A DNA stretch of 64,000 bases. It comes from Eledone cirrhosa. Taxonomy: Eukaryota. The stretch lies in NCBI GenBank assembly GCA_964016885.1, contig OZ024743.1:156612001-156676000 (forward strand), written 5' to 3'. The position numbers were made by a program, and so were the translations under genes. The notes beneath the pieces were generated by a model. The model searched no databases. It was not told the origin of the DNA and saw nothing but the letters and a program-made list of their open reading frames with translations. Positions 5,633 to 54,843 of this stretch are shown here, one piece after another. Position 1 is the first letter of the stretch. Every line of letters begins with the position of its first letter.

Positions 5633-5668
<36 letters not shown>

Positions 5669-8278: not shown

Positions 8279-8310
<32 letters not shown>

Positions 8311-12316: not shown

Positions 12317-12395
<79 letters not shown>

Positions 12396-16660: not shown

Positions 16661-16699
16661 AATATGGTTTTATAAATATAGTTTCCATTTATTTAATAT

Positions 16700-16785
<86 letters not shown>

Positions 16786-16789
<4 letters not shown>

Positions 16790-17421: not shown

Positions 17422-18223
17422 TATATATATATATATATTTCAGTGTATATCCCTCATGGTAGATATATGTAAATATAAGCATGTGTTGGTGTGTATATAT
17501 GTGCAGTGTAGTGTTAAAATATAGATTGCATAGATACATGTATTTACTGTTCCATGAACAAGTCTAACAGTTTCAATACAATTCATCTGCTGGGCTACTT
17601 GGTTTCATTAATTATTAAGTCCTTATAATCCCTCAAGGTGTCTTCCAAGAGTAAAGTAATGTTTAAACCAGTATCGTTCAGTGATCTGATTTCCCCCAAC
17701 CCCGATCAACTGGCAGTTATAGTTCAGTTCTTGATGTTGTCATCTGAGCATGTGGACAGCTGTTGTTGTTCGCTTGTGTCCTGTGATGATAGCATTGATG
17801 TTATCCTGAAAGGAACAAACAATTGTGACTTATAATGGAGTTGAAGATTTTGTTGTATTTGTGTCATCGAATGTGGGCAGGAATGTTTTAACTATGTTTA
17901 TAGACACATAGATTTAAATGATGATTGTAGGGGTTTGTGTTTCTTTTACCAAATTAATATAGCTTGGGTTCGATTCGTCGATGCACGTTAGGTGTTTCCT
18001 TACATTAAAGTCTCACTAGTGCTTCTTCATGAGGCAATCCTGTGCAACATATCTATTTCCTATGATAAGCTGCACTGTTTTCTCCTAATCCTGTTTAATA
18101 TGTATATACCTACATCTGGTTTGGTTGTTCTTGTTTCATGAATATATTATGTTTCCTCAATAGAAACCTTCTCACTCCCTCTCTATATCTTTGAGTCTGG
18201 ATGTGTGCATGTGTGCGCATGTT

Positions 18224-18268
<45 letters not shown>

Positions 18269-19264
18269 TAAAATAACAGATTAAAGTTTAATCAAAGAAT
18301 CGCTGTTTTCACCCTTAACGGGATCTTCTGAAACTAACAAAGTCAATCTGTAAACGCAGAACTGGATATTTCAAAAAACGTTGCAACCAGAGGAAGACAG
18401 GAAGACGATACTTTGGTTCGTGGAAACGTTCGCTGGTGAAGAACGGGAAAAAACGAATAATACGTCATTAATAGGAGCGGTGAAAAACAATTACGCGCAA
18501 AGACAGAACAACGTTTATGGTATAAAAGAGGTCGTAGACTAATGTTCTCTTAGGTGGTGCATAGAGACGTTCTCTGGCAATGAACGAAAAAACGAAGATA
18601 ATAAGTCATATGTGGAGCGTGGAGAACAATAGCACGCAAAGACAAAACCACGTAAATGGTATAGCAGAAGTTGTAGACTAAAATTCTAACTAGGAGACCA
18701 AACGAATCTCCGCTACAGAGTTAAGAACAAAGTAAATAAATACAATACAGAAGTAATAGAAACAAATAAATACATACACGCAAACAGATACGTACATACA
18801 CAAGCATACGCAAAACCTTACCATAGGTATACAAAACCACGCACATATAAATATGTGTGTGTGTGTATGCTTGTGTACAAATAAATAAATAATTATATAA
18901 ACGTATATAAGTAAATAAATACTTATATAACAAGCGCACACACATACCTACAAATAAATACACGAATGTTCGAAGACGTAAGTCAACTAAAACAAGAAGT
19001 ACACATATACACACACCCACCATACGTACGAACCTGCATACTCACGCAGACGCAAAACTCCCATATACACATAGACAAACCCTAAATACCAGAATATGTA
19101 AAAATTATACGCCATAACAGTCAAATATACGTACGAGAAGGTATACATACCTTCACAAAATATACATGGTAATATATACTTACCTATGCAAATAAGTAAA
19201 GGAATAAACAAAACATATTCTTAGCTCCCACATCAATACGTAAAATATGCACGTAAAGATCGTG

Positions 19265-21393
19265 CTATCCGTTAGGGTATAACGTGGGGCTGTAATACAG
19301 GAAAGTTTTGTGCAATTTATGTTTACAAGCCGAAATTGCCTCAGATTTTTTGTTTAAGATGTGGTCTGTGGCGTAGAGTATTTCCAGGGCCTCAGCGGCG
19401 CAGAGGTCACATGGTCTTTTATTTCCGTTATACGATCTAGCCCTAGCTAGGATCTCCAAGTGTAAATTATATTGGGTGTGGTTGTCTTTTAGACTCCAGA
19501 TATAAGCTGAAAGTGACGTCATATTCCTTCTTAGAGGGTAACGAAAAGAATGGGTATGCATGTAAAGACGCTGCTTGAAACTATTGGCGGTTAACCCTAT
19601 GTAGGCCCTACGGGACGTGGGTGTTACAACCTTACATTTATAGACAATGTTACTAGAGAGGCATTTCCCGGATAGGGGACAATCAGCCCGATTCCTACAA
19701 TTACAGTTAGTACTAACTACAGGGTTGCACGTGTTCCTACGGCTAGGTAGTTTTGCTAAATTTGAAGCTGTGATGTTATGTGCAAGGTTAGGAGTCGTAG
19801 AGTAAAACATTTTAATCGTATTTCTATTAAAAAATTTACTATGTTTATGCGTAGGGGGAAAATGCTTCGTAATAAGGGAAAGAAAGATGTTAGCTAATGG
19901 TTTGGCCACCTCCACATTATATGGTGGGTTAAACCAACAAATACGACGGGATCTATTTCTTCTAGGTCTATTTTCGTACTCTGTATATGCTACCTTATCG
20001 ACAAATCCACTTCGAGCAAGAGCTTCATTGTAATAAGTGGAATGGTCGTCGAAAATGCGCTCGTTGGTGGAAAGACGGGAAAGCCTCAACGAAACGTTTT
20101 TTACCAGGTTCTTGGTTATGCTGGCAGGATGGTTGGAATGCTTACTTATGTAATTAAGCGTATCATTCGGCTTTCTATACGGGTAATACAACCCATTCAA
20201 TAAATTGAGGGTAACGTCGAGGTAATTAACGACTGAGAGATTGGCCTCAACCTGTATAGAGTGGTTGAAGCCTTTAAAGAAGGCTGTGAGTTCTTTTCTG
20301 AACCTGTCGCAAGCACGAGGTCCGCACTTAGTCATGGTCAAAAGACCATCGTCACGGTACAAACCACCCCCGCGTTGGGGAATTCGTCCTTGATAGAGAA
20401 AAGAAGGAAAAGGCCAATAAGATCAGTAACCTCCGCAGAGTGACTGGCGCACATACTCGCGTCGAATGGGGTACTATTGGATTGTTTAATCCAAATAGAG
20501 TCGTCGAAATTAATCACCGGCTTTCGGGCATTAAGGATGACATCAACTTCGAAATCCTTAACCACTGTGAGTGTTTTAGCGAAATTGATAGCTCTAAGGA
20601 GAAGTGGTAAAGTAATGGAGGAGTAGTAATTGTTGATGTCGAATTGGATAAAACGGCAATGTTCCTTGTTACATATGCCGTTGAACCAATCAATCACCGC
20701 GAAAGAATTGTTCCACAGTGCGAGAGGGGCCAAACTTAAAATTTCAGGTATAATTCTATCAAGAATCGTTTTACTAAGTCTACCTAAATCGGACTTCGTG
20801 GGGTTAATAAGCCGAATAGAGGGGTTGTTCGGAAAATTGGATTTGTGATCCTTCAGTGTAAAGTGGGGAGAGATAGAGTCCAGAGGTTCGGTCCGGTCCA
20901 GGATGTTGAGATCAGATGTGATTTTAAACCCAGCATCGTTGATTTCATTGACGACACACCGATTAGTTTTACGGTAATCCTTAGTTACAGCATTATGTAG
21001 TAGTTGATGGTAAGTACTGCGCTCCACTTGATATAGGTTGCCAGTTTTGTCGGAATGGACGTGCACGGCGTTAGAATCCTTAATATAACGAATTCTATTC
21101 TTCAGGTCTTGCTGGAAGGAATTGCTCCTATTTCGAAATTTGATACTCTGAATGAGTTCCAAGACATCATTTTCGAAGGCTAGCAATGCTGGGTTCCACG
21201 GAGGGTTATTATAGGTTTTAAATCCAAATTTATTCTGTTTGTTGTCTGCTTTTCGCGGATTATCGAAATAAAAGGCACGCCAACGCAACCTTTTAATGAA
21301 CGCGTCTGTTTTCTGTATCAGGAGTTTTAGGTATGTTTTCCTGCTTGGTACGGGTATGTTCTTTGTAGAAATATTGAGATGTTGTTTCTGCAT
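19265..21393 (-). pseudogene. PLE reverse transcriptase + GIY-YIG endonuclease, one frameshift near 20365
   Basis: DKTGNLY, RLINP, QFDINNYY, (GL)YRDDGL, YLDVT, WFNPPY, CNCRNRADCPLSGKCL, IVY..YIG..FKQRLYMH, CDLC..E, LNKKSE..CKH. Confidence 0.92.
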
Positions 21394-23017
21394 GATGAAT
21401 ATAAGTCAGTAGAGTGCTCAACCGAAGGAGCCAAATAGTAATAATAATAAAATTGAAGACTAAAATCCAAAGAGGGCTCGATAAGGAAAATATATATCAA
21501 ATATATAAGAACCGAAGAGCAAATAACAGATTAAAGTTTAAGCAAAGAATCGCTGCTTTCACCCTTAACGGGATCTTCTGAAACTAACGAAGTCAATCTG
21601 TAAACGCAGAACTGGATATTTCAAAAAACGTTGCAACCGGAGGAAGACAGGAAGACGATACTTGGTTCGTGGTAACGTTCGCTGGCAAAGAAGGGGAAAA
21701 AACGAATAATACGTAATTAATGGAGCGGTGAAAAACAATTACGCGCAAAGACAGAACAACGTTTATGGTATAAAAGAGGTCGTAGACTAATGTTCTCTTA
21801 GGTGGTGCATAGAGACGTTCTCTGGCAATGAACGAAAAAACGAAGATAATAAGTCATATGTGGAGCGTGGAGAACAATAGCACGCAAAGACAAAACCACG
21901 TAAATGGTATAGCAGAAGTTGTAGACTGAAATTCTAACTAGGAGACCAAATGAATCTCCGCTACAGAGTTAAGAACAAAGTAAATAAATACAATACAGAA
22001 GTAATAGAAACAAATAAATACATACACGCAAACAGATACGTACATACACAAGCATACGCAAAACCTTACCATAGGTATACAAAACCAAGCACATATAAAT
22101 ATGTTTGTGTGTGTATGCTTGTGTACAAATAAATAAATGATTATATAAACGTATATAAGTAAATAAATACGTATATAACAAGCGCACACACATAACTACA
22201 AATAAATACACGAATGTTCGGAGACGAAAGTCAACTAAAACAAGAAGTTAAAGACCATGTGACCTCTGCGCCGCTGAGGCCCTGGACATACTCTACGCCA
22301 CAGTCCACATCTTAAACAAAAAATCTGAGGCAATTTCGGCTTGTAAACATAAATTGCACAAAACTTTCCTGTATTACAGCCCCACGTTATACCCTAACGG
22401 ATAGCACGATCTATACGTGGATATTTTACGTCTTGATGTGGGAGCTAAATATATGTTTTGTTTATTCCTTTACTTTTTTGCATAGGTCAGTATATATTAC
22501 CCGTATGTTTTGTGAAGGTATGTATACCTTCTCGTACGTATATTTGACTGTTATGGCGTATAATTTTTACATATTCTGGTATTTAGGGTTTGTCTATGTG
22601 TATACGGGAGTTTTGCGTCTGCGTGAGTATGCAGGTTCGTACGTATGGTGGGTGTGTGTATATGTGTACTTCTTGTTTTAGTTGACTTACGTCTCCGAAC
22701 ATTCGTGTATTTATTTGTAGGTATGTGTGTGCGCTTGTTATATACGTATTTATTTACTTATATACGTTTATATAATTATTTATTTATTTGTACACAAGCA
22801 TACACACACAAACATATTTATATGTGCGTGGTTTTGTATACCTATGGTAAGATTTTGCGTATGCTTGTGTATGTACGTATCTGTTGTGTATGTACGTATT
22901 ATTTTCCGTTTCTTTGCCAGCGAACGTTTCCACGAACCAAAGTATCGTCTTCCTGTCTTCCTCCGGTTGCAACGTTTTTTGAAATATCCAGTTCTGCGTT
23001 TACAGATTGACTTTGTT

Positions 23018-26773: not shown

Positions 26774-29065
<2,292 letters not shown>

Positions 29066-29186: not shown

Positions 29187-29453
29187 ATTGCCTCAGTAGG
29201 CGGTATGCCGGGTCAACACTCGCTGTTCTTGGGGAGCAGAGTAACAATAGTATTTTTATATAAAGGAAAAAGGAATCAGTTTGCATCATATAAATATGTA
29301 TTACACATTCCATATGTTTCACTGTCGATCAGCTTCAGGAGCGATCTGTTAATGATCGAACCTGTCTCTGGAATCGGAAGTTCCTGAGATAGGTTTTAAT
29401 ATCCAGGTTCATGTTTGAGACAGTCTCAGACGCGAGCCTGCATATTAAAATAT

Positions 29454-29791: not shown

Positions 29792-31030
29792 GATATACGT
29801 GGACAAATAAGAAATATGAGAACCAACCGTTACAACATGTCTATTTAAAACAGCTCATACGTACGTTTCGCCCGGATGGGCTTCTCAGGGGCATAAATAA
29901 CTAAAAGAGTGTTCCTTACAAGGCCCGGAAAGTGTTTTTGGAGATAAGTTCATCTCAGAGTTCATTCTTCTCAAAAAAGCGTGTTTTGATTTTGCAGTAG
30001 GTCAAGGGAGGTAACTCTGGCCGGTGTTAGGGCAGTCTTTCCCGGACAAATTTTCATCCGTTACAAGATGTGGTTACACCCTTACCATTGTCAGGTATGC
30101 AACGTTTGTTTTGAGACGTTTGTTTGTTGCACCTCTCCGCCTGGGTCATTTGAAGCCGGGTCTGGGATGCATGGTTAGTTTCCGGATGTTTTTTGCAGCG
30201 CCTACTCGCTGGAGTGTTAAGGCTTGTCGCAGGAAGACCCGCTATACGGTTTCACTCCTTGTCCTTATCCCATCTGAAGAAGGATATTTTTAAGCGATGC
30301 GTTAGCATATCGTCGTTTCAGCTCTGCTGTTGAGGAAATCGTGGGGTGCCGTTATGATGTGATAGAGCTCCATGAGGCAAAAGTCGCACTTCCTCTTGAA
30401 GTTGTACGGTGCAGCCCTGCCGACAATTCCCCAGTGCGTGGAGAAGCTGATGTTTAAATCTTTAATGATATGATGTAGTCCGCGAGAGAAGTGGATGTAT
30501 TAATTTCCTATTTATGAAAGAGTGGAATTGTGTTCGAAATCTAATTTTGAACGGGCCAGAGGTTATCCCTATATAATGTTTAACGCTATTGTGGCTAGTT
30601 ACAGTGCACATATATATAACTCTATCGGTCAAGAAGTATTCTCTAAGGGGACAGCGTCCCCTGTCGCGGCAGTTGAAATTTCGGTCGCGGTCCCTTCTAA
30701 TTCCCATGGTAATGCTATCATTATTTCTATCTACGTTGTTACCTACACTCCCACACCTGTGGTTAGTACCATTATAATCCACAGTTCGCGGGATGGTACC
30801 ATTATTATTCCGCAGGTTATGTCCTGCTTATTCCCCAGTCATATCGCGGTTATACGGGTTGCGTCTGTAGAAGCTGTTGCCAGCACTATTGGATGCTGCT
30901 AGGGAGTCGTTAAGGCTGATATAGTTATTGTCAGGTGTAGGTGCGTCTGTGCTACGGTGCTGTGTCTTGGTGATATTACTGTGATTAGTTTTTCCTATGA
31001 TGTCTGCTAGGTTAGGCGTAGTAGACAGGA
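29790..31030 (-). mobile_element. Degenerate Naiad-like PLE 3' fragment (third subfamily) with a decayed HHR at 29853-29892
   Basis: STTPNLADII, NCRDRGRCPL..VIYMC..YIGIT..FKIRF, CDFCLME. Minus-strand CUGAgaa-GCCC aucc GGGC-GAAA-CGUACG-UA. Confidence 0.8.
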
Positions 31031-32140: not shown

Positions 32141-34708
32141 TTTATTTTTACTTAAATATTATTACTAAGCCCACTTACTTCGTCATCCATACGATCTACT
32201 TTCGGTGTCCCGCCACAAATTCTCTCTAATGATTGTACTATTTCCTCTATAATTTGTATATAAATCTGTCTTTGTTCAGATCGTACTCCCAACATTCTTC
32301 CTTCTCAAAACAATCCCATACGCTATATCTCTTCATTTTTCAAATCACTCATTCATTTCAATCATTTGCTAGTTTACCATCAAACGGACAGCAGGAATTT
32401 ATTTCTCGACATTATGTCAAAGGAATGTCACCGACCCGAAAGCGTCTATTAGATACTAGTCATGGCTATTTTAATCAACAAAATGATCTTCCTTTGAGGA
32501 ATTATTTCTCACAGAAACCATTAGACTTCAGCCCAATTTCTAAACTATACTCCCAAACCATTATTAAATTTCCTAGGATGAACTTTTACTGAAGTTTTAT
32601 CATGTGTATGCCTATTATGTGAATTTTATATCAGTTTATTTTATATATTGTGTGTGCTCAACTATTCTGATCTCATATCAATTGTATTTATTATCAATAA
32701 TATTTATTTTCATAAAGTTAAACTTTCACAGGAAAAAAAGAAAGAAAACGAAGAATGATATTCCAGATAAGATCTTGTAGTGCCAATGTATTGTTTGCAA
32801 TGAAAAGAATTGTCAAAGTACGACTTCTTGAAAGATAAACTCTAATTAATATATAAGAGAAAACTTACAGTGTTGCAATAGCTAACTATATCTGAAGGAG
32901 AAAAATTACCACGAACCTATGGAAATCCTTGGAGCATGTGAGAAATACTAACAACATTTATTTTTATACGAATGAAAGACTGGAAAATAATTTCTGAAAG
33001 AACAAATTATAAAGTTGGATTTGAAATATTTTCAATTATAATTTTAAATTAAAATTCAATATAATTTTAAATTTAATTATAAAAAGTAACCATTTGCTCA
33101 GAGACTTAGTAATCATGAAAGCATCATTGTAAATGCCTGGAAAAAGTCCATTAGGATATTTTTTATTTCTATATTTGCAGTCATAAAAACCGACACCACA
33201 TATATAAAATATCTTCACAGCTATATTTTCATGCTGGGTTGAATAAAACTGCACATTTAGATAAAGTATTTTCTTAGACCACAAAGTTATCCTACTGAAT
33301 ATTTTCATTAATTTCATCGGAACATCATAAAAGTTTCTATTTCTATAGATATTGCTTGGCTATGTCGTTAGGATAGAGAGAGTAAGGGAATATCAAATGA
33401 TTGATATCAAATATAATAAGCATATTACCTTGCTGAAACTAGGTTGAATATTGTGTTGCCCAGCAGGCGAAAATGAATCGAACTATGATGAAAGGTATTA
33501 CTACCATCATCATACTGCAATCAACTCACTCAAAATATAGAACTATTTAATGACGACAGTGTTAAGAGAAATTATTCTGTTATTTATAAAAATTTAAGTA
33601 GAGAAGAATAGGTAAGCTTGTTGATTTATCCTGGAGATCCTCATTGCATTGCTATATTATGTAGACAGGGAATAAATAGACAACTCTAGTTATCAAGAAG
33701 TGGAGAGATAATGTCTTCAGATAGTAAATATATAGAATTGAGCGTGTATTTTGTATATATATATGTTAGTGGTAACGAACGGAAGAATGACTACAGACTT
33801 GGGTTAGAATATAGGCATGCACATTACAATGTAAAAAAAAACGTACCATGTTCGGGTGCAATATGCTCTGGTGTCAAATCTTGCAGAGGCAAGATCACAA
33901 ATTAGATAAAAGGGGAGAAATCCATGACGAAGTATTGTCAAGATTTGAGTATCGGGTGTGATTCACTTTGGTATCCGTTCTGAATTAATGAGTTCTGAAA
34001 TGTAATCCTACAGTCGATTTATAGACCTAATTCGCCACCTGATTTAGCGCCAGCACTCTGCATTTATTTTACTTTAGTGCGAAGATTACTACACTCCAGA
34101 AATTTGAGACAAATTTTAGGATACCATCTCTACCGAATTAAATTTAAAAAAAAAGAAATTATGTGAACAATTTTCAGAGGATTATTGAGAAATATTAAGT
34201 TGACATTAATTGTGCTGCACCATGTGCATATTAAGAGTTATGTATGACAAATGAAATAAAAGTCATGTAAAATAGTATCACTTTGCTTACTTTTGAAACT
34301 TGCATCCAATTAGTCGAATACAAAATGTGATTGATATTCTGATAGTTTCTAATTAGACCGATGATTCAGATAGCCTTGTACTACTGGACAAAAATTAGAT
34401 TCTACGAATTTTTTGTCAACCTACAAGAGAGAAATTTTTCTTGGAAGAGCGTTCTCTAGCAGAAGGAACACTCCATAAGTTGTATATATATATATACATA
34501 TATATATGTAGGAGGTGAGTTTTATTGTAGTACAATAAAGCAATGCAGATATCGGATATCTCATCTCCTTCCCTTTTCATCCTCCCCCCCCTCTCTAAAT
34601 AAAATATTTTTCCCAATATCACACATCAATCTAAAACCACTTTTCATATGTTGATTTAAAACTGCACTATCAACAAGTGTTTTTTAGCCTTCATATCATG
34701 TTCTCCTG

Positions 34709-34775
34709 TTTTATCTGATGAAAACACAAATATTATTGCTTGATGATGTTTGTTTTTGAAATGCGCATAATAAAA
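34709..34775 (+). ncRNA. Type I hammerhead ribozyme related to 16597-16660
   Basis: UUUUAU-CUGAUGA-AAAcACAAAUAUUAUU gcuu GAUGAUGUUUGUUUUU-GAAA-UGCGCA-UA^AUAAAA, followed shortly by (TA)n. Confidence 0.85.
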
Positions 34776-34837
34776 TATATGGAACTCCTTTAACCATCTT
34801 TTGATCTTATATTATATATATATATATATATATATAT

Positions 34838-35255
34838 GGGGAGTGTAACGTGAAGTTACTGTAGTTTCACTTAGGTGAGAATACGATATTTAGATTCAGG
34901 TCTATAACGAAGTGTAGACCTAAACAGAGAGTAAAAATAATAATACAAGGACGATTTTTGGCACTTCTTCATTACGCATATTGGTTGATGACAGGCCTTT
35001 GGCTATTGATCAGCACAAGCTTCGAGCTGTAACGACCTGGCCCGACAATAGAATCAAAAGCTCGTCGGACCTCTAGCTGTTGTAACGGTTGAATTGGTCA
35101 TTATAACAGCAGATGTCCGACGAGCCTTTGATTCCAGAGGCGGGACAGATCGATACAAATCGAACCTTGAGCTGATCAATAGCGAAACGTGCGTCACCAA
35201 ACAATAAATCAATAAATCCAAGGAAGGCTTATCAAATCGTCCTTGTATTATTATT
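34838..35255 (+). ncRNA. Rod-like structured non-coding element with a variant hammerhead core
   Basis: Nested stems 34936-34957/35234-35255 (22 bp), 34981-85/35196-200, 35002-14/35171-83 (13 bp) and 35051-70/35115-34. UGAUGA at 34986 and GAAACGUGCGUC at 35184. Confidence 0.65.
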
Positions 35256-35269
35256 AATATACATACATA

Positions 35270-35350
<81 letters not shown>

Positions 35351-35351
<1 letters not shown>

Positions 35352-35605
35352 GGATTTGGAACTGCCATGAAGTCAAAGTGATCCCGATTGTCATAGGCGC
35401 ACTGGGGACTATCTCCAAAGGTTTCCAGGGATGGTTAAAGAAAATCGGCCCCTTCACGCTTTTTGGAACGCTTCAAAAGGCATGCTTGCTTGGAACGGCA
35501 AGAACCCTCCGATACGTCCTGAATATCTGAGGCTGCAGGTAGTGGCTTGATATTCAATCCAACGGACTTTTCAGTTAACCAACATCAATGACTGAGATTC
35601 AAGGA
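35351..35605 (+). mobile_element. R4/Dong-like family A, 3' stub between (TAA)n tracts
   Basis: Near-identical to the 3' end of the copies at 5677 and 39487. (TAA)n at 35268-35350 and 35606-35659. Confidence 0.9.
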
Positions 35606-35616
35606 ATAACAATAAC

Positions 35617-35659
<43 letters not shown>

Positions 35660-35662
<3 letters not shown>

Positions 35663-36404
35663 GGCTACAGAAGGAATGCTAATGGCTGCGCAGGAGCAGG
35701 CCCTCAAAACGAAGTGGTTGAAGCACCATATTTACAAGGAGGAGGCTAGCCCACTGTGCAGGATCTGTGGAGAGAGAGAGGAGACTGTGGCTCACATTGT
35801 GTCCGAGTGTAAACACCTAGCCCAGACCCACTATAAGGGCTGGAGACACGATGTGATGGGCAGGGTGATCCACTGGCACCTGTGCAAAGTAAACAATTTA
35901 CCACATTCTGAGAAATGGTATGAGGATAGGACAGAGGCGGTGATGGAGAACAATCAGGTGAAGGTGCTGTGGGATTTTAGGATACAGACGGACAAGAAAC
36001 TGGAACACAATAGACCTGACCTGGTGGTTGTGGACAAAGAAAAAAGATCGTGTCTGATTGTGGATGTGGCCTGCCCATTCGACAATAGAGTGCAAGAGAA
36101 GGAGAGGGAGAAAATTAACCGATACCAGGACCTAAAGTGGGAGGTGAAAAGGATTTGAAACTGCCATGAAGTCAAAGTGATCCCGATTGTCATAGGCGCA
36201 CTGGGGACTATCTCCAAAAGTTTCCAGGGATGGTTAAAGAAAATCGGCCCCTTCACGCTTTTTGGAACGCTCCAATAGGCATGCTTGCATGGAACAGCAA
36301 GAACCCTCCGATACGTCCTGAATATCTGAGGCTGCAGGTAGTGGCTTGATATTCATTCCAACGGACTTTCCAGTTAACCAACATCAATGACTGAGATTCA
36401 AGGA
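35660..36404 (+). mobile_element. R4/Dong-like family A, 3' fragment (zinc finger + RLE) between (TAA)n tracts
   Basis: CRICGEREETVAHIVSEC, RH, RPDLVV..DVACP..K. Confidence 0.9.
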
Positions 36405-36412
36405 ATAACAAC

Positions 36413-36460
<48 letters not shown>

Positions 36461-36461
<1 letters not shown>

Positions 36462-39400
36462 GAAGGAAAGGGACCAGAACCAACTGGACGAAAGAATTGA
36501 ATAGAACTGTTATGCAATTTAACCTGAAAAGTAACCCCGAGGAGGGGGGCTATAGGAGACGGATGCATAACATCTGGAACGAGATTGGTCTATTTAAATT
36601 AGATGAACAAAAATTGGCCGGTCAGGCTCGGGTAATAAGAACTAATGGGTGGATAAGCGACCTGGAACTGGAGGAACTGAGCAGAGAGATTAGCTTGGAG
36701 ATGGAGGGTGGAGTATGCCAGTCAAACGAGCCAGTGGGAAATGAAGGTGAAGAGGTCGAGAGAACGGAGGAACCGCCCAACGCAGACAATGATCTGAATA
36801 CTGAAATAAATAATACCTGGAACAGAGATACGGCCACTGAGGAGATGAATGCTGACGGGCTAGGACAAGATTCGGTTGACATCCTAAATTTAGTGGTAGA
36901 TGAATTGAACAATGGTAGTGGGAGACCTATGAACCTAAGATTTGTAGACAGGAAAAAGATAAAAGAAACAACAGCTAAGGTAAACAAAGTCATCCCATAC
37001 CTTGAGGCGAGGAGCCTTCACCAGTGTAAAAATATCCTCAAAGAAACAGCAAATACGGTGAGGAAACTACTTGGTATAAAAGCGAGAGGAAACAACAGAC
37101 AAAAAAGAGCAGAGCCTTGGTGGAAGAAACGACTGAGTGGTCAAATCAGGGAAATGAGAAATAACATTGGAAAGCTTGAGTCACTACTGAATGGGACACT
37201 AAAAAACATAGGCACTAAAAATAGACTGGAAATAAAGTACAAAACTAGGAGGAAAAAATTAAAATATATTATCATAGACGAACTGAAGCAACGCATTGTA
37301 GCAAAGAGTGCAAAAATCAGGCGATACGAGAACAGAGTCAGTCAGTATAAACAGAACCGCTTGTTCGACAACAACCAGAAGATGCTGTTTGGACAGCTTG
37401 AGGGGAAAGAAAGAGGCAATGACTTGATCCCTGAGGCGGAACAAGCTAAAACATTCTGGAGGGGAATATGGGAGCAGGATGTTAGACATAATGACCAGGC
37501 AGTGTGGATTGATACAGTACAGAAGGGGATCAGTGAACAGGCACACCAACAAACTGATTTGAGTATCACAGTTGAAACTCTTAAGGGGCAGGCCAAAAAA
37601 CTAACCCACTGGAAATCACCAGGCCCAGATGGTGTGCAGGGGTATTGGATTAAAAATATAACATCCCTCCACCCGAAACTGACAACCATGTTCAATGACT
37701 GCTAATGTCAGGGGAGGTACCAGAGTGGTTGACAAAAGGTACCACACTTCTGATAATGAAAGACCGAATCAAGGGTAATGATGTTACCAACTATAGACCT
37801 ATCACATGTCTGTCCGGATTGTGGAAACTGTTGACGAGCATTGTGTCTGAGGAAATCTACCATCACCTCCACACAAACAACTTGTTACCGGACGAACAGA
37901 AAGGATGCCGAAAGAAGTCACGTGGTACAAAGGACCAGTTACTTATTGATAAGATGGTAATGGGGAATTGCAGGAGGAAACACACTGATCTTGCCATGGG
38001 ATGGATAGACTACAGAAAGGCATTTGACATGGTGCCTCATTCTTGGATCACCAAAAGCCTGGAGATCTTCAAGGTGGCAGATAACATCAGACAGTTGTTG
38101 GGCAAAAGTATGAGGTCCTGGGAAACAGAGTTGACATCAACTGGAGAATCCTTGGGAAGCGTGAAGATCAAGAGAGGTATCTTCCAGGGAGATAGCCTGT
38201 CCACTCTGCTGTTTGTCCTTGCCCTGATGCCCCTGACCAGTGTACTGCGAAAAGTGAGAGCAGGATACAGGTTGGGAAAGGGAGGGCTTACCATCAATCA
38301 CCTCCTCTTCATGGACGATCTTAAGCTCTTCGGGAAGAGTGAGAAGGATTTGGATGTACTTGTTGACACTGTCCGTATTTTCAGCAGTGATATATGTATG
38401 CAATTTATACAGTGATATATGTATGCAATATATATATGCAATTTATGGTATTAGTAAGTGTGGAGTCATTGTGATGAGGAGGGGTAGGTTGAGCAGAAGT
38501 AACGCAATCCAGATACCAACAGGTGAGATGATAAAGGAAATTGACTCTGAGGAAGGATACAAGTATTTGGGCGTTCTGGAGGCTGATGGCATAAACAACA
38601 AAAAAATGAAGGAATTGTTAAGAAATGAATACATTCGGAGAGTAAGGAGCGTATTGAAGTCACATCTGAACAGCAGAAATGCCATAAGCGCAGTGAATTC
38701 CCGAGCTGTGTCTATTATTAGGTACAGTGCAGGAATCCTGAGATGGAATGTTGCTGAACAAAAAGAAATGGATAGGAAGACTAGGAAGCTATTGACTATC
38801 TACAACATCTTCCACAAGAGGAGTGATGTCGATAGACTCTACTTAAAGTGATCTGAGGGTGCAAGAGGTCTTATCAGCATAGAGGACTGTGTTCAGATGG
38901 AGAAAAACAACCTACACAAATACGTGACTGATAGTAAGGAGCCAATGCTAAGAACTGTACTGAAGGAGGGGACAATAGGCCAGGGGATGTCTAAGGAGGA
39001 AATAACATCAAGGAGAAGGAGCAGCCTTCAGGAAAAATCCCTTCATAGTACATTCTTTGAGAAAACTGAATTTAGAGATCCACAGGCATGGAACTGGTTG
39101 AGAAGAGGAGACCTTAAAAAGGCTACAGAAGGAATGTTAATGGCTGCGCAGGAGCAGGCCCTCAAAACGAAGTGGTTGAAAGACCATATTTACAAGGAGG
39201 CTAGCACACTGGGCAGGATATGTGGAGAGAGAGAGGGGACTGAGAGAGAGAGAGAGGAGCATAAGCCAGGGGCGGTTATAGAGAACGATCAGGTGAAGGT
39301 GCTGTTGGATTTTAGGATACAGACGGACAAGAAACTGGAACACAATAGACCTGACCTGGTGGTTGTGGACAAAGAAAAAAGATCGTGTCTGATTGTGGAT

Positions 39401-39737
39401 GTGGCCTGCCCATTCGACACGAGAGTGCAAGAGAAGGAGAGGGATAAAATTAACCGATACCAGGACTTAAAGTGGGAGGTAAAAAGGATTTGGAACTGCC
39501 ATGAAGTCAAAATGATCCTGATTGTCATAGGCGCACTGGGGACTATCTCCAAAAGTTTCCAGGGATGGTTAAAGAAAATCGGCCTCTTCACGCTTTTTGG
39601 AACGCTTCAAAAGGCATGCTTGCTGGGAACAGCAAGAACACTCCGATACGTCCTGAATATCTGAGGCTGCAGGTAGTGGCTTGATATTCATTCCAACGGA
39701 CTTTCCAGTTAACTAACATCAATGACTGAGACTCAAG

Positions 39738-39802
<65 letters not shown>
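36461..39802 (+). mobile_element. R4/Dong-like family A, near full length, disrupted, with (TAA)n tail
   Basis: ORF pieces 36497..37705, 37705..38415, ~38445..38851 and 38897..39664 carry RT and RLE motifs. Part of the zinc finger is deleted near 39240. Confidence 0.92.
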
Positions 39803-40569: not shown

Positions 40570-43500
40570 AAAACCCCGTGGCCAAGAAATACCGGGATGG
40601 CGGCCGGCGGGGAATAGCCGTGTCTCTAGGGGAGAACGACCCCTCTAGTCTTGCTTGACACGCGTTCTAGAAGTGGTAACACGAAATCATTACCCCTTGG
40701 CGGATAAGGATAAAACGCGACAAAATAAAGTAAATGTTTAATGATAAAATCTCATGCCGGATCGGCCGTCACCCGGCTAAAAAGGGGCCGCGTCCCTCAG
40801 AGAGGAACCAGACTGGGGTCGAAAAATCAGCTGATGGTTCAAACCTTCCCATCACTTCAGAGCTGGAGACCTCCCATAACCGGAATACTACTACTGTTGG
40901 CCATCCATGCTCACCACCAAGAAATCCAAAGAAAAAGAGAGAAAAATGGTCAAGGGAAGAAAATAAAGAAGTCCTTGAGGCTTTCTACACTGCCATGTAC
41001 TACCCATCAAATACATCGAATACAGAACAGACATATATCAACTGGAAAATGAAACATCCCGAAAACAAAGGCTATATTGACAGTAACAAACTAGCCAATA
41101 TACGAAGAAATATTGTAAGAAAAAAGTTACTAACTGATATAGAAATTGATCAGATCAAGCTATTAGCACAAAGTCAGCGAAGGGAAAATGAAACATGTGT
41201 CAGTGAAAACGAGGTAAACTGTAACAGTTCGAACCCCAGGGTTGGGGCGGAATCACTGGCAACAGAACAAATTAAAGAAAGGATCGAACAAGTGGAGGGA
41301 GTGCATGCTCAGGATGAAACTCCAAATGAAAATAATGAGATCGTAAATGATAAAGAAATGAATGAGAATGAACTTGCCAACTTGAAGGATGAAATTATGA
41401 TCGAATTGATGAAAATGAAAGAATCTGACATGGGGCAACGAGACACCCTCCCTAAGATCCAGAACTCCAAACAGAACCAAAAGATAATACGCAAGACTAA
41501 CATAATTCTCAAAAACATTATCATCACAAACAAACTAAACATTACTGATTTAAATCATCTCTATTATGCATCGGCTAAAGTCACCACTCACTTATATGGA
41601 GTGAAGATGAAAAAACAAAGGAATTCCCACAAGAAATCTACTTGGCAAGAGAACATCAATCGCCAAATAAACCTTCTCCGACATAGAAATTTTAACAAAC
41701 TATAAAGTAGGTGAACAATTTAAACAAACTAAACTTAGAAAATTGAAAAAAAGTACAGTATAAAATCAACATGTGACATAGACATGCTGATAGAAATAAT
41801 CAAGCAAAAAGTGTCGGGCAAAGCTGCTCGTATAAGGCGCTTTGAAAAACGATCCAGATTCTATAAGGACAATAATATGTTCAAAAAGAACCAAAGGAAC
41901 TTCTACAGAAAAATTGGTAAGTCAACAATAACTGCTAAATCAATACCACCCAAGGAGGAAGTGCAAGAATTCTGGGAAAAGATCTGGGCCGAAGAAAAAG
42001 TTCATAACATACATGCCCCATGGATAGACAGACAAATGAAAGATACAGCTCACCTTGAGGAACAAACATGGGAAAATATAACAGTTGAACAGTTGCGCTT
42101 GGCTCTAAGAAAAACCAGCAAATAGAAATCCCCAGGAAAAGACAAAATACAAAACTTTTGGATAAATGCCTTCACAGAGTCTCATGAGCTGTTAGCCCAA
42201 CTTTACAATGAAATAGTTAAGGAGCCAGAAAAGATACCATCATGGCTAGGTAACGGCATTACATTCCTGCTTCCGAAGAATGATGAGACAAACAATCCCA
42301 AAAATTACAGACCGATAACTTGCTTGACCACAATTTTTAAAATTTTAACATCAGTCCTAACTGAATACACATATGACCACCTGATAACAAATGACCTATT
42401 TCCCATTGAGCAGAAAGGATGTAAACGAGGCTCATATGGCTGTAAAGATCAGCTTCTGGTTAGCAAAATGATACTGGAAGATTGTCATAATAGACACAAA
42501 AATCTATCGATTGCTTGGATAGATTATAAAAAAGCATTCGATAGTTTGCCACACAGTTGGATTGAAAAATGTTTAGAGATTTTCAAAATATCCCCCGTTG
42601 TCAGGAGGTTTTTGTCGTTCAGTATGAAGACATGGAAAACGACACTCCTTTTGAATAGTGAAACAAAATAACTGGAAGCTGGAGAAGTTAATATTAATTG
42701 TGGAATTTTTCAGGGTGACTCTTTATCACCGCTTTTATTCTGCATCGCACTTATACCATTAAGTAAAATACTCAATGAAACAAAACATGGATATAAAGTC
42801 TATGACAAAACCATTAATCACCTGTTCTACATGGATGACCTGAAACTATTTGCAAAAAATGAAGAACAATTGCAAGGGCTATTATCCACTGTGAAGCAGT
42901 TCAGTGATGAAATTAAAATGGAGTTTGGACTAGATAAATGCGCCAAAGCAACGTTCACCAGAGGAAAGCTGCTGAAGAGTTCAGACATTAATCTTGATCG
43001 GGGGAACGTGATAAGAGAACTTGATCAAGAAAAAACTTACAAATATCTAGGTGTTTGTGAAGGAGACGGAATCAAGCACTCGACAATGAGGGAAAGGATA
43101 AGGAAGGAATGTTACCGCAGAGTAAGTGCAATCTTAAGAACGGAATTGAATGCAAGGAATAGGATCGATGCCATAAACACGCTTGCCATACCAGTAGTAA
43201 CCTACAGTTACAATGTCATCAACTGGTCAAGCACAGAGATCCGTAGGCTCGATACAAAAATTTGAAAATTCTTAACCATGCACAGAATGCATCACCCTAA
43301 GGCAGATATAGATAGAATTTATCTCCCTAGGAAAGAAGGAGGACGTGGGTTAATCCAGTTAGACATTGCGTTGAAAACTGCAACAATTGGATTATCTACA
43401 TATCTAATGGAATCACATGATTGGATGATCAAACTCGTTTTGAAACACGAAAGCATCAAAAGATCATATTCCATTACAAAAGATGCACAAAGATACAGTA

Positions 43501-44535
43501 ATGGACTACAAATTTCAGAAGTCCCATTTACTGCTGAAATGGAAAACACAGAAAAAGCAAAGCAGGTAAAAGTAACTGCAAAGAAAGAACTGCTACAGAA
43601 ACTGGCTAAGAAATGGCAAGAAAAGCCTCTGTATGGAAAATACCCAGAGCGAGGTAACAATCCTGATGTTGACAAAACTTTAACCCATCAGTGGATGGCA
43701 TCCTCTGGACTGAAATCGGAGACTGAAGGACTGATTATATCGGCACAAGATCAGTGTCTGCCAACAAAAAATTACCAAGCCAACATAATAAAAAATGGGT
43801 GCAGCCCATTATGCCGTGTATGCAAAAATCAACCAGAGACCATTGACCATATAATTTCAATGTGCAGTCCTATAGCTCCAACTGAATACCTAAACAGGCA
43901 TGACAGAGCTGCACAATACATACATTGGATAATGTGTAAACATTTTGACCTGCCCCATCAAAAGAATTGTTGGGAGCATCAACCACCTCCCATACTTGAA
44001 AAAGATCACATCTCAATCTTGTTGAACTTTAGCATCCAAACAAACCGAAAAATAAATGCAAATAGACCTGATATAATATTGAAGGACTTTAAAAAGAGGG
44101 TATGCCTGCTAATTGATATGTCTGTTCCAATAGACAAGAATGTATCTATAAAAACATTTGAAAAATTGAGCAAGTATAAGGACCTGGAGATAGAAATTGG
44201 AAAAATGTGGAAATTGAGAACTAAAACAATACCAGTGGTTGTAGGCACTCTGGGAATGATACCTAAGGGGTCTAATGACTACTTTTCGCAAATCCCAGGA
44301 AACCCGCGTATAGGAGAAATACAAAAGATAGTACTAATGGGAACTGCCCATATACTAAGGAAGATTATGTCAATATAAGTACATCACAAGTCTAAACACT
44401 AAAGATGCATGTGTGAATATGTATGTTCTTTCTGGCGGACCTTGTTGCCTCTTGGGGTCACTGGTTGTGACTTGGTGATAACTCGTATGAACATAAAGCA
44501 AGATAAATGCAACTGTAATAATAATAATAATAATA
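40570..44535 (+). mobile_element. R4/Dong-like RLE LINE family B, full length, several stops and frameshifts
   Basis: GC-rich 5' UTR, ATG 40734, KSPGKD, YRPITCL, WIDYKKAFD, QGDSLSP, YMDD, CRVC..HIISMC, RHD, RPD..D..K, stop 44378, (TAA)n tail. Confidence 0.92.
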
Positions 44536-44964
44536 AAAATAAAAATAATTAAGGGAAGAAGACACACATAGTAGAAGGTCGAGAAATCGCTCCCGTAAGT
44601 TTTGATTTTTTAACATATTTAAATCAATTGTGAAATAACAATTCTTAGTACAAATGTTGAATAAAACATAAAGCTTGAGTCCCAAAAAATTCGGATCCAC
44701 AATATATTGTTATATCGCTCAAATATTCAATGTTGTATTATACATTTTATATTCTAAAAGAAAATGGTTATAAATGGATGGAAACCCCCTCTGTCTACAC
44801 TATAGAACAGCCAAATAACAGCAATTTCACCAACATCACAAACTAGATACACCACCTACCCCATCACCCCTCTCTGTACACTAAACACAACAGCTCGATA
44901 ACGGCAATTTCACCACCACCACCACCAATCTCAGCATAATAATAATAATTACTATTACTATTGC

Positions 44965-46009: not shown

Positions 46010-47256
46010 GGGTTCGTCTACAGCGTGATAATGCCACACAAAAGTCGCGTGGAGTGACGAAACCACCGGAGACAAATAATACAGCGGTGGTTATGTAACC
46101 ATACATTCACCAATTCTCGATAAGAGTGTTTAAATGTCGAGCCTAAACAGTTCGAATAACGGTGAAATGGAGACTAGAATGTCATGTGACAGACTCTCAC
46201 CCAACAGGTGCTCCCTGGCTCAGCAGCAGGGACCTGGCTGTCAACCAAATACTGCTGGTGTCGGAGGGAGAAGAAGAAGGAAAGGGACCAGAACCAACTG
46301 GACGAAAGAATTGAATAGAACTGTTTTGCAATGTTACCTGAAGAGTAACCCAAGGAGAAAGGCTATAGGAAAAGGATGCATAACATCTGGAACGAGATTG
46401 GTCCATTTAAATTAGATGAACAAAAACTGGCCGGGCAGGCTCGGGTAATAAGAACTAATGGGTGGATAAGCGAGCTGGAACTGGAGGACCTGGGCAGAGA
46501 GATTAGCTTGGAGATGAAGGGTGGAGTATGCCAGGCAAACGAGCCATTGGGAAATGAAGGTGAAGAGGTCAAGAGAACGGAGGAACCACCCGAAACAGAC
46601 AATGATCTGAATGCTGAGATAAATAATACCTGGAACAGAGATACGGCCACTGAGGAGATGAATGCTGACGGTCTAGGACAAGATTTGGTAGATATCCTAA
46701 ACTTAGTGGTAGATGAATTGAACAATGATAGTGGGAGACCTATGAACCTAAGATTTGTAGACAGGAAAAAGTTAAAAGAAACAACAGCTAAGGTAAACAA
46801 AGTCATCCCGAGGAGCCTTCACCAGTGCAACAATATCCTCAAAGCACCAGCAAATACGGTGAGGAAACTACTTGGTATAAAAGCGAGAGGAAACAACAGA
46901 CAAGAAAGAGCAGAGCCTTAGTGGAAGAAACGACTAAGTGGTCAAATCAGGGAAATGAGAAATGACATTGGAAAGCTTGAGTCCCTACTGAATGGGACAC
47001 TAAAAACATAGACACTAAAAATAGACTGGAAATAAAGTACAAAACTAGGAGGAAAAAGCTAAATATTATCATAGAGGAACTGAAGCAACGCATTGTAGCA
47101 AAAAGTGCAAAAATCAGGCGATACGAGAACAAAGTCAGCCAGTATAGACAGAACCGCATATTCGGCAACAACCAGAAGATGCTGTTTGGACAGCTTGAAG
47201 GGAAAGAAAAGGACAACGACTTGATCTCTGAGGCGGAACAAACTAAAGCATTCTGT
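46010..47256 (+). mobile_element. R4/Dong-like family A, 5' portion (UTR + N-terminus), 3'-truncated
   Basis: 46274 onward matches 36461 onward. It supplies ATG 46134, which the other copies lack. Confidence 0.88.
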
Positions 47257-47396
47257 AGAAGCTTGTATAATATCAAGATATACTTATTCAAGTGGGCTCT
47301 TATAATTCTTCAGTGGGTGCCCAATAATATTAATATTGATAACCAAATCAACATCATTATTTAGCGATAATCACACACACATATATATACATATAT

Positions 47397-48353: not shown

Positions 48354-48355
<2 letters not shown>

Positions 48356-49038
48356 CGGCGATGAATTAGTTTTGCGAGGTTTTTTATATGAAATCGTGTG
48401 TCGAAACAGATATTGTTATATTTGGGGAGGGTCATATTTGCGTAATATTGCCAGAATTAATAACAGAACACACTCACTGTTTGGTTGGTTTTCGCTTCTC
48501 GCTGTCTTTTATATATATATATCTGCGATCTAACTTACTCGGTCCTCAATGTTGCCATTGACTGACCGGCGGTCAAAAATAATACAGATACAATATAGAC
48601 AAACACATATATATATAGTTTACATAAATCTTTCGTTGCACATCTGCAACATCGTCAGTGGTGTTATATTCATTGTTCCTCCTGTTGTGTTGTATGTCTA
48701 CGCCATTTTTTTTTGTTCAGTCTGTCTCAGACAGACTGAACAAAAAAAAATGGCGTAGACATACAACACAACAGGAGGAACAATGAATATAACACCACTG
48801 ACGATGTTGCAGATGTGCAACGAAAGATTTATGTAAACTATATATATATGTGTTTGTCTATATTGTATCTGTATTATTTTTGACCGCCGGTCAGTCAATG
48901 GCAACATTGAGGACCGAGTAAGTTAGATCGCAGATATATATATATAAAAGACAGCGAGAAGCGAAAACCAACCAAACAGTGAGTGTGTTCTGTTATTAAT
49001 TCTGGCAATATTACGCAAATATGACCCTCCCCAAATAT

Positions 49039-49046
<8 letters not shown>
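48354..49046. mobile_element. Perfect fold-back of the second PLE family pLTR (318-bp arms, 1-nt spacer at 48728) plus a 56-bp extension on the left arm
   Basis: 48410-48727 is the reverse complement of 48729-49046; the ORF track gives mirror-identical ORFs. Homologous to 26808-27118. HHR-like CUGACGA-uGUUGCA gaug UGCAAC-GAAA at 48798-48825 has a poor stem I. Confidence 0.92.
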
Positions 49047-50983: not shown

Positions 50984-53900
50984 TGGCGGCCGGCTGGGAA
51001 TAGCCGAGTCTCAAGGGGAGGACAACCCCTCTAGTCTTGGTTGACACTCGTCCTAGGAGTGGTAATTCGAAATGATTACCCCTTTGCGGTTAAGGATAAA
51101 ACTCAGAGACGAACCAGACTGGGATCGAAAATTAGCTAATTGTCCAAACCTTCCCATCAATTCGGATACCTCCCATAACCGGAATACTCTACTGATGGCC
51201 TCCATGCTCGCCACCAGGAGATCTAAAGAAAATTAGAGAGAAATGGTCAAGGGAAGACAATAAAGAAGTCATTGAGGTTTTCTACACTGTCATGTACTAT
51301 CCATCAAATAGATCGAATACAGAACAGACATATATCAATTGTAAAAAGAAATATCCTGAAAACAGAGTCTATATTGACAGTAACAAACTACCTAATATAC
51401 GAAGAAATAATATGAAGAAAAGGTTACTAACTGATGTAGAAATTGATCAGGTCTAGCAATTAGCGCAAAGTCAGCGAAGGGAAAATGAAACATATGTCAG
51501 TAAAAAAATGTTAATTATAATACTTTAAATGCCAGGGTCGGGGAGGAATCACTGACATCAGAACAAATTAAAGAAAGGATCGAAAAAGTGGAAGGAGTGC
51601 ATGTTCAAGATGAAACTCAAAATGAAAACAATGAAAAGATCAATGATAAAGAAATGAATGTGAATGAACTGGTCACCATGAAGAACGAAATTATGATCGA
51701 ATTAATGAAAATGAAAGAATCTGACATGGGGGAACGAGACACTCTCCTTAAGATCCAGAACTGTAAACAAAACCAAAGTATAATCCACAAGACAAACATA
51801 GATCTAAAAATTATTATCATCACAAATAAACTAAACATTACTAATCTAAATCATCTCTATTATGCAGCGGCTAAAGTAACCACTCACTTATGTGGAGTGA
51901 AAGTGAAAAAAAGAAAGAAATTCCCACAAATAACCTACTTCACAAGAGAACAACCATTGCCAAATAAACCTTCTCCGATCAGACATAGCCATTTTAGCAA
52001 ACTACAAAGTAGGTGAACAAGTTAAACAAACTAAATGCAGAAAATTGAAGAGAAAATACAATATAAAATCAACAAGTGACATAGACATGCTGATATAAAC
52101 AATCAAGCAAAAAGTGTCGGCCAAAGCTGCTCGTATAAGACATTTTGAGAAACGCTCTAGATTCTTTAAAGACAATAATATGTTCAAAAAGAACCAAAGA
52201 AACTTCTACAGAGAAATTAGCAAGGCGACAATAAGTGCTAAATCAAAACCACCCAAGGCGGAAGTGCAAGAATTCTGGGAAAGGATCTTGGCGAAGAATA
52301 ATGTCATAATATACATGCCCCGTGGATAGGCTGACAAATGAATGATACAGCTCACCTTGAAGAACAAACATGGGAAAATATAACAGTTGAACATCTGCAT
52401 TTAGCTCTTAGAAAGTCCAACAAATGGAAATCCCCAGGGAAAGACAAAATACCAAATGTTTTGATAAATGACTTCACAGAGTCTCACGAGCTGTTAGCCC
52501 AACTTTACAATGAAATGGTTAAGGAGCCAGAAAAGATACCATCATGTATAGTTAAAGGCATTACATCCCTACTTCTCCAAGAATGAGACAAATAATACAA
52601 AAAATTACAAACCTATCACTTGCTTGACCACATTGTATAACATTTTAACATCAGTCCTAACTGAATATGCATATGATCACCTGATAACAAATTATATATT
52701 TCCTAATTAGCAGAAAGGGAGTAAAACGAGGCTCATATGGCTGTAAGGATCAGCATTTGATTAACAAAATGATACTGGAAGATTGTCATAATGGACACAA
52801 GAATCTATCAATTGCTTGGATAGATTACACAAAAGCATTCGACAGTTTTCCACACAGTTGGATTGAAAAGTGTTTAGAGATTTTCAAAATAACTCCTGTT
52901 GTCAGGGGGTTCCTGTCATTCTGTATTAAAACATGGAAAACAACACTCATTTTGAATAGTGGAGAAAAATCACTGGAAAACTGGAGGAGTTGATATTAAT
53001 TGTGGAGTTGTTCAGGGTGATTCTTTATCACCGCTTTAATTTGCTTCGCACAGATACCATTAAGTAAATGCTCAAAGAACAACATATGAATATAAAGTCT
53101 ATGACAAAACCATTAATCACTTGTTCTACATGGATGACCTGAAACAATTTGCAGAAAATTATGAGCAATTGCAAGGGCTATTAACCATTGTGAAGCAGTT
53201 CAGTGATGATATTAAAATGGAGTTTGGACTAGATAAATGGGCCAAAGCCACGTTCACCAGAGGAAAGCTGTTGAGAAGTTCAGACATTAATCTTGATCCG
53301 GAGAATGTGATAAGAGAACTTGATTAAGAAGAAACTTACAAATACTTAGGTGTTTGTGAAGGAGACGGAATAAAGCACTCGACAATGAGGGAAAGGATAA
53401 GGAAGGAATGTTACCGCAGTGTAAGAGCAATCTTAAGAACGGAGTTGAATGCAAGGAATAGGATAGATACCATAAACACGCTTGCCATACCAGTAGTAAC
53501 TTACAGTTTCAATATCAACTGGGCAAGCACAGAAATGCATAGGCTCGATACAAAAATTAGAAAATATTTTACAATGCATAGAATGCATCACCCTAAGGCG
53601 GATACAGATAGAATATATCTCACAGATAAGAAGGAGGACGTGGATAAATCCAGTTAGTTATTGCTTTGAAAACTGCAACAATTGGATTATCTACATATCT
53701 AAGGGAGACTCATGATTGGATGATCAAACTCGTTTTGAAATATGAAAGCAACAAAAGATCATACTCCATTACAAAAGATGTACAAAGATACAGTAATGAA
53801 CAACAAATTTCAGGAGTTCCCTTTACTGCTAAAATGAAAAACACAGAAAAGGTAAAGTGGGTAATAGTAACAGCAAAGGAAGAACTGCTACAGAAACTGG

Positions 53901-54832: not shown

Positions 54833-54843
54833 ACATTTATACA

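Follow-up and report, generated by a model that had tools for sequence, protein, structure and literature searches.

A rod-forming locus of Eledone cirrhosa is probably an aged inverted pair of a short Penelope-type repeat unit

Hammerhead viroids and viroid-like circular RNAs are rods with internal mismatches. Endonuclease-positive Penelope-like elements (PLEs) are described, in the accessible portion of the work of Arkhipova and colleagues (PMC3846280), as bearing inverted pseudo-LTRs that are joined head to head and may have a tail on one of the arms, an arrangement ascribed there to self-priming, and the corresponding portion of the study by Craig and colleagues (PMC8557442) reports inverted 5'-truncated PLE copies, tails and a bias towards (TA)n, together with some clades that are without canonical hammerheads. 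Minimal hammerheads occur, according to the accessible text of PMC4209133, as pairs on opposite strands, 100-700 bp apart. Retrozymes, as far as the available sections of PMC7229834 and bioRxiv 10.64898/2026.07.22.740005 describe them, are head-to-tail tandem units with a complete type I hammerhead each and give rise to circular RNAs. Finally, short non-autonomous Penelope elements are portrayed in the accessible parts of reports on Heliconiine butterflies (PMC6685494) and on MRC1 of Chlamydomonas (PMC8557442).

Here we analyse a rod-forming locus in a 64,000-nt stretch of contig OZ024743.1 of E. cirrhosa (the window), which is AT-rich animal DNA dense in microsatellites and retroelement remains. 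An earlier note on this DNA had read the locus as an unrecognised mobile RNA with a hammerhead-like core split across a viroid-like rod, and had added as a side remark that it might be a PLE terminus. The side remark has gained support, and a resemblance to a minimal hammerhead of the Penelope type is indeed seen in the 3' half of the core. Very likely, a short multi-copy PLE-type unit, which may be a solo pseudo-LTR or else a non-autonomous derivative of a PLE, was inserted at the rod locus long ago, in the form of an inverted pseudo-LTR pair produced by fold-back reverse transcription. One copy of the unit lies on each strand, head to head in a (TA)n tract, and only the minus-strand copy has a tail (Table 1). 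The left copy has its GAAAC box decayed to CAAAG, and the right copy has an 8-nt duplication near 35202-35217 which is private to the locus. To the right, the degenerate (TA)n and an (AAT)27 tract together occupy 35256-35351 and are followed by pieces of an unrelated non-LTR retrotransposon; the flanks being microsatellite, a target-site duplication is unreadable.

Table 1. Features of the rod locus and of two related loci in the window, with the evidence for each
Feature	Position	Strand	Evidence
Left target site, (TA)15 tract	34808..34837	.	TRF
3' extension ("tail") of the left unit, ~98 nt, on the left arm only; three small hairpins inside	34838..34935	-	contig contiguity
Left repeat-unit copy, sense on the minus strand; ~10 nt missing at the 5' end; core decayed	34936..35090	-	arm alignment
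UGAUGA string, antisense of the left unit's cleavage-site region, rod-paired	34986..34991	+	ensemble pairing and alignment
Head-to-head junction at the rod apex; the unit's 5' boundary recurs at ~35091-35097	35085..35097	.	listed pieces and joints
Right repeat-unit copy, sense on the plus strand; ends in (ATT)3; no tail	35091..35255	+	sequence, contigs, alignment
Putative half-hammerhead relic	35165..35195	+	sequence, contig tables, negative minimal-hammerhead scan
Right target site, degenerate (TA)n remnant	35256..35269	.	sequence, TRF
Distant relative of the unit core: CCTGAA for CCTTGA, same stem, GAAAC-ATAT	29316..29375	-	within-window comparison
Perfect head-to-head palindrome of a Penelope-like 3' end of a different family	48355..49046	.	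within-window alignment

As far as the accessible portions of PMC3846280 and PMC8557442 describe the inverted pseudo-LTRs of PLEs, the locus agrees with them in its head-to-head junction, in the 5' truncation of one partner, in its one-arm tail and (TA)n site, and in a hammerhead-type motif near the 3' end, whereas it differs in having no ORF between or beside the arms, in the ~98-nt length of the tail, and in a hammerhead core that is incomplete in the majority of the family. Like the metazoan non-LTR retrozymes, in the available descriptions, it is short (within the 170-400 nt range), non-coding, AT-rich, multi-copy and probably PLE-derived. However, its units stand head to head, no head-to-tail joint is found among the 15 listed joints (30 in all) and no tandem repeat at the rod locus, the core is incomplete, and single units alone fold weakly (z -1.9 and -0.5). 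An assignment to the non-LTR retrozymes was rejected because these, as the available sections define them, require tandem units with complete hammerheads, which the rod locus lacks. With the PLE minimal type I hammerhead, as presented in the accessible text of PMC4209133, the unit shares the G10.1-C11.1 closing pair, GAAA, the GUC triplet, and the palindromic 15.2-16.2 and loop 3, but it has neither CUGANGA nor UUGANAA, no helix I, and a helix II of 4 bp only. The short non-autonomous Penelope elements are likewise non-coding PLE derivatives at high copy number, a likeness that is drawn from the available descriptions alone. The ~320-nt rod with internal mismatches recalls hammerhead viroids, from which it differs in containing no contiguous ribozyme in either polarity and in being a genomic repeat duplicated in inverted orientation, and unlike in viroid-like RNAs the rod apex is absent from most copies. 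Measured against the accessible accounts of these systems, the unit works like an inverted PLE pseudo-LTR pair and is neither a retrozyme nor a hammerhead.

The rod itself is real and spans 34936-35255, none of 100 shuffled sequences being as stable. In the shuffle test the z score is -15.0 on the plus strand and -18.9 on the minus strand for 34930-35262, and -14.9 on the plus strand for 34838-35255 (0 of 100 shuffles as stable). Much of what the earlier note had described was found in place, namely the 22-bp perfect outer helix (34936-34957/35234-35255), the 13-bp perfect helix (35002-35014/35171-35183), the 19/20-bp inner helix, and both the UGAUGA and the GAAAC-GUGC-GUC (35184-35195) strings; a 10-bp apical helix is present in addition. 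A further helix proposed there, UUGGU/ACCAA, fell away, with a pairing probability of 0.02-0.03 as compared to 0.93-0.96 for the rod register, in which UGAC (34989-34992) pairs with GUCA (35193-35196) and G8, A9 and the cleavage triplet are buried. Nor do G-U pairs favour the plus strand, as had been suggested, since the MFE folds contain 4 of them on the plus and 9 on the minus strand. A strand-neutral alignment of the arms gives 5 and 10, respectively (p=0.30), among 33 mismatches, 18 of which are mismatched on both strands; 119 of its 152 columns are Watson-Crick and 8 are gap columns. ADAR editing before retroposition was rejected because of this lack of a significant strand bias. Of two hairpins placed upstream of the rod, the one at 34898-34920 was confirmed and the other proved slightly misplaced, hairpins lying at 34845-34859 and 34860-34885 instead. 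The 98-nt tail block that contains them is modestly structured (z -2.5 on the plus and -3.4 on the minus strand); by eye, a double change at 34865/34880 preserves a pair in these hairpins, and changes at 34899 and 34919 disrupt pairing in the third.

Copies of the unit were examined in three contig sets of one sample and in one RAD-seq run under the same species label, contigs being aligned to 34830-35270 at 80% likeness. No RNA run is among the listed data sets that contain the stretch, which has no bearing on expression. Summed contig depth is 120,000-352,000 at 35145-35189 and 12,000-19,000 at 34845-34874 and 35220-35249, with the rod locus's own contig contributing ~10. Summed depth is not copy number; a divisor of 10, and one of 31 to allow for contig overlap, put rough bounds on the latter, ~900-33,000 copies in the case of the core and 40-1,500 in that of the end of the tail. 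The rod apex is rare, with a depth of 12-25 at 35086-35087 of which ~10 is the rod locus itself. Forty of the 202 variant rows are listed, and the tail region takes 14 of these. For the left arm (15 rows listed), 11 of 12 tested rows have other letters that match the right arm in reverse complement; rows 35014 and 35016 and the T allele at 35020, which occur almost exclusively in the RAD run and fail to match, were set aside, so that the full count is 11 of 15. For the right arm (11 rows listed) the 4 rows that fall within the aligned stretch were tested, and in all of them the majority letter brings back Watson-Crick pairing with the left arm, as it does by eye in four further rows (35217-35219, 35222), 35207, 35232 and 35257 standing outside that assessment. 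Both arms therefore derive from one unit. Each arm carries changes of its own, and the two copies are 76% identical over 156 columns.

The ends of the unit can be read from pieces and joints among these contigs. Among the 24 listed pieces (of 10,592), several of which represent one locus in three runs, 13 start at 35096-35100. The loose ends agree back to ~35091 and diverge beyond, and the boundary at 35097 may partly reflect alignment clipping where the rod-locus copy differs. In 11 of the 15 listed joints one side lies at 35069-35101 and the other side is variable. They are of two types, either a near-complete inverted copy followed by a forward copy from 35146-35167, or a forward copy from 35097-35101 preceded by an inverted copy that is cut at 35163-35211 or in the tail. 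In two listed joints the tail continues into the reverse complement of the right arm (34881 and 34957, joined to 35208 of the other strand); two others represent internal deletions. The tail is contiguous with the arm in other copies too, as seen in 135-138-nt contigs spanning 34830/34839-34957, loose ends show (TA)n directly before 34839 in other copies as well, and 146 reads have unrelated flank before 35223, as expected of a 5'-truncated copy. The unit is ~165 nt plus the 98-nt tail (~265 nt), with its 3' end at (TA)n. Each joint is a single short-read contig per run, all of them from one sample, and its sides measure 20-49 letters; the joint-based structure of the unit is to be taken as suggestive and not as a census. 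In other collections, a 17-mer found 3 loci in IMG/VR with homology confined to 18-21 nt, a 24-mer had no match in the JGI metagenomes, a degenerate 23-mer had 8 there, all GC-rich (55-72%) and without flanking homology, and GTDB gave no match.

The rod locus has the same layout, in aged form, as the perfect palindrome of a different family at 48410-49046. The arms of the latter (48410-48727 and 48729-49046) are identical at 318 of 318 positions and are separated by a 1-nt spacer, and the whole is flanked by (TA)n to the left and right. Each arm contains one hammerhead-like motif, a 55-nt tail is confined to the left arm, and there is no ORF. This palindrome could be a very young insertion or an assembly artefact. 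One arm matches 26807-27119, the 3' end of an element, with 298 identities, and the ORF of that element, at 27339-28448, sorts with clusters of the HTH_animal and GIY-YIG kinds at a best score of 0.97, GIY-YIG being present in 18% of one such cluster. Another PLE-like element, at 18271-22914, has ORFs 20338-21405 and 19265-20422 on the minus strand, 730-bp direct repeats (97%) and a head-to-head inverted copy joined at 22244-22248; its homologues carry PF26215, and the scans found no canonical hammerhead in it. Pfam left the PLE-like ORFs undetected. The best named homologues reached 51-53% (Penaeus) and 41-43% (a coral and a sea cucumber), and the element content suggests an invertebrate animal. 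On the plus strand, 34707-34775 and 16597-16660 are intact minimal type I hammerheads that belong to one family, both with an 8-bp helix I, CTGATGA or CTGACGA, GAAA, and long helices II that differ from each other. Their palindromic loops differ as well (TGCGCA, TATATA), and each is situated ~35-45 nt before a (TA)n tract; the one at 34707-34775, only 60 nt upstream of the rod locus, was missed by Rfam. Decayed or variant minimal hammerheads are also seen on the minus strand at the 3' ends of two other PLE-like remnants, at 29889-29855 (CTGAGAA core, GTAC loop) and ~27056-27020 (CTGACGA core, 6-bp helix II). Comparison of the unit with the PLE ends in the 64-kb window gave no significant match that would point to an autonomous PLE with the same unit, and a 14-nt match of the apex to 29824-29837 was set aside as chance (E 0.27).

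A multi-copy unit, arms derived from it, truncated head-to-head joints elsewhere, (TA)n flanks and a one-sided tail are thus direct observations, and they suggest the following course of events. A PLE reverse transcriptase with a GIY-YIG endonuclease, supplied in trans, would prime cDNA at a nick in (TA)n; the cDNA would fold back near the 5' end of the RNA and be recopied into a perfect palindrome; and neutral decay of ~11% per arm would leave the imperfect rod. A read-through transcript would then give double-stranded RNA on either strand as a by-product. By eye, the 5' end of the unit at 35098-35104 and the segment 35218-35224 are complementary over 7 bases in majority letters, and this complementarity could seed fold-back priming. 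The decay looks neutral, since polarised changes (10 in the left and 4 in the right arm, p=0.18), the ratio of transitions to transversions (15/18 among arm mismatches vs 80/57 in the family, p=0.24) and the G-U counts of the arm alignment show no significant bias. Selection on the rod left no sign in the tests of G-U strand bias and mismatch spectrum, and the idea of selection prompted by regularly spaced, transversion-rich mismatches was dropped because the spectrum is that of the family.

Some observations speak against an inverted PLE pair. The ~98-nt tail exceeds the 30-40 bp given in the accessible portions of PMC3846280 and PMC8557442, that of the young palindrome being intermediate in length. 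The left unit and its tail look more diverged than the right unit, even though the polarised test is not significant, and a higher divergence of the left arm would not be predicted by an origin from one template; two template RNAs or later gene conversion could be behind it. Moreover, A34988 is found in most of the left-arm contig depth (133/150, 65/65 and 126/154), and therefore TGATGA is not private to the rod locus and a subgroup of copies carries the UGAUGA string. Then again, most of the contigs with A34988 have G34997 and C35001 as well and so regain GAAAC on the minus strand, just as would be seen in a second copy of the unit. In simulated inverted copies decayed by 11%, TGAnGA appeared in 5% of runs and CTGAnGA in 0.3%.

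Could the rod instead be a fold-back DNA transposon or MITE, with terminal inverted repeats of ~160 bp, a DDE transposase, and tandem GATCRATA-like motifs as its binding sites? The 22-bp perfect outer repeat, the TA-rich target and the short motifs repeated in the arms would fit such an element, but we consider it unlikely. In a MITE the inverted repeats are both outer ends of the element, whereas here 98 nt of family sequence lie outside one repeat only and are contiguous with that repeat in other copies, one-armed and inner-truncated copies exist, as do copies with unrelated inner-side flanks, and the apex is common to about one other contig. In addition, the perfect palindrome at 48410-49046 is a retroelement that produces the same shape.

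Within the inverted Penelope-type pair, the hammerhead-type motif calls for an explanation of its own. The core of the unit in most copies consists of a 4-bp stem closed by G-C, GAAAC, GCGC, GTC and then AATAAA; at the rod locus CCTTGA replaces CTGANGA, the stem is GCTG/TAGC with its G-C closing pair, GAAAC, a GTGC loop and GTC follow, and AATAAA stands 3' of them at 35203-35208. The GAAA box, the palindromic helix III/loop 3 and the NUH site are all present at 35184-35195, and for helix I of a half-hammerhead there is no local complement 5' of CCTTGA. We infer that GAAAC-GCGC-GTC is a relic of a dimer-type minimal hammerhead from which part of CUGANGA and helix I have been lost, and because of this loss no self-cleavage would be expected. 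In the distant relative of the core (73% over 60 nt, E 9e-6 in the within-window search), CCTGAA would be the residue expected after loss of one TGA from CTGATGAA. Alternatively, the half-hammerhead might be retained as a substrate-only strand that, through its palindromic helix III, pairs with the intact minimal hammerhead of a helper PLE RNA and is cut by it in trans at GUC, in which case the non-autonomous family would parasitise the ribozyme of its helper as well as the reverse transcriptase. It is true that the read pile-up is deepest over the stem, GAAAC, the palindromic loop and GUC. At 35190, 87-88% of contig depth has GCGC as the loop, one RAD locus has GTAC, each of them a palindrome, and PLE minimal hammerheads are described as dimers in the accessible text of PMC4209133. 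However, depth is confounded by the closeness of the rod-locus copy to the majority, GTGC and GTAC are also the CpG decay products of GCGC, the bases 3' of GUC differ between copies, and by eye the hammerheads at 16605 and 34715 offer no partner for helix I, all of which makes cleavage in trans quite improbable. The literature covered, mainly non-subscription papers and with Repbase and Dfam outside the comparison, gave no account of the unit family or of a trans-cleaved half-hammerhead.

That the rod is kept as a hairpin-RNA locus which feeds Dicer and so silences the family is very unlikely. Its stability on both strands and the thousands of potential targets would suit this role, and small RNAs from Penelope copies are reported for rotifers in the accessible portion of PMC3846280; yet there is neither a G-U strand bias nor an unusual mismatch spectrum, and the best Rfam microRNA-precursor score (34.6 vs a gathering score of 100 bits) reflects a generic hairpin. 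As for a tRNA-like head, ARAGORN found no tRNA genes in the window, and the unit shows no A box and no Rfam match. Two nonamers near 35149-35167 resemble, by eye, the B-box consensus, and most copies have a T4 run at 35126-35129.

The split hammerhead across the rod, finally, fails on its core. As had been recognised, this core is atypical, C3 being absent and 10 extra bases following A9. Forcing the split fold costs +16.2 kcal/mol, or +15.3 kcal/mol if helix III is left to a dimer, the ensemble probability of the model's helix III is 0.000, and the 5' half of the core is GTCATCA of the left copy read in reverse complement. At the gathering score Rfam has no matches in the window, and at E up to 10 it has 12 in 34500-35600 with no ribozyme among them. 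A minimal-hammerhead scan with CUGANGA cores and the U3-A8 variant UUGANAA found nothing at the rod locus, and in the whole window it found two well-formed minimal hammerheads (16605, 34715), as compared to 0 matches of that strength, and a weak match in 8, in 100 shuffled windows. No core-restoring insertion appears among the 12 of 14 indel rows listed. Depth over UGAUGA is 65-154 vs 227,000-268,000 over GAAAC, with the reservation that left arms closer to the right arm would align to the right arm. Thus, although UGAUGA and GAAAC-GUGC-GUC oppose each other around the 13-bp helix and some few contigs have A34988 in common, a viroid-like mobile RNA of the non-coding kind, with a switchable hammerhead or one with a giant stem II of 180 nt, is scarcely credible, given the defective core, the 15-16 kcal/mol penalty, the missing Rfam hammerhead, the shallow depth over UGAUGA, the rarity of the apex, the second-copy letters of the A34988 contigs and the ready appearance of TGAnGA in simulated decay, and the copy data have already largely refuted it.

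An inverted duplication of a GAAAC-NNNN-GTC-A(C/T)CA repeat needs one base change to place a UGAUGA-like string on the opposite arm, and old PLE fold-backs can therefore mimic viroid-like split-hammerhead rods. The rod locus is chiefly a caution and a resource, a real structure of ordinary origin. The window brings together a perfect, apparently young palindrome and a decayed one, and its minimal hammerheads comprise two that are intact and several that have decayed, so that this genome is useful for studying the origin of inverted PLE ends and for asking whether PLEs can do without their hammerheads; that they can would be favoured by a high-copy family without the catalytic box.

Other elements fill much of the remaining map. 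Copies of two non-LTR retrotransposon families, at 5633-8283, 35348-39802, 40734-44549, 46275-47258 and 51102-54833, have restriction-like endonuclease ends, terminate in (AAT)n and are nested in (AAT)n tracts; we take these families to be R4/Dong-like. A LINE remnant with two ORFs lies at 705-5218; it has a reverse transcriptase and an N terminus like that of AP endonucleases, and is Tx1/L1-like by inspection. At 13394-15807 there is a 310-bp satellite (6.2 copies at 99%) to which an inverted block of 506 bp (13394-13899) is joined.
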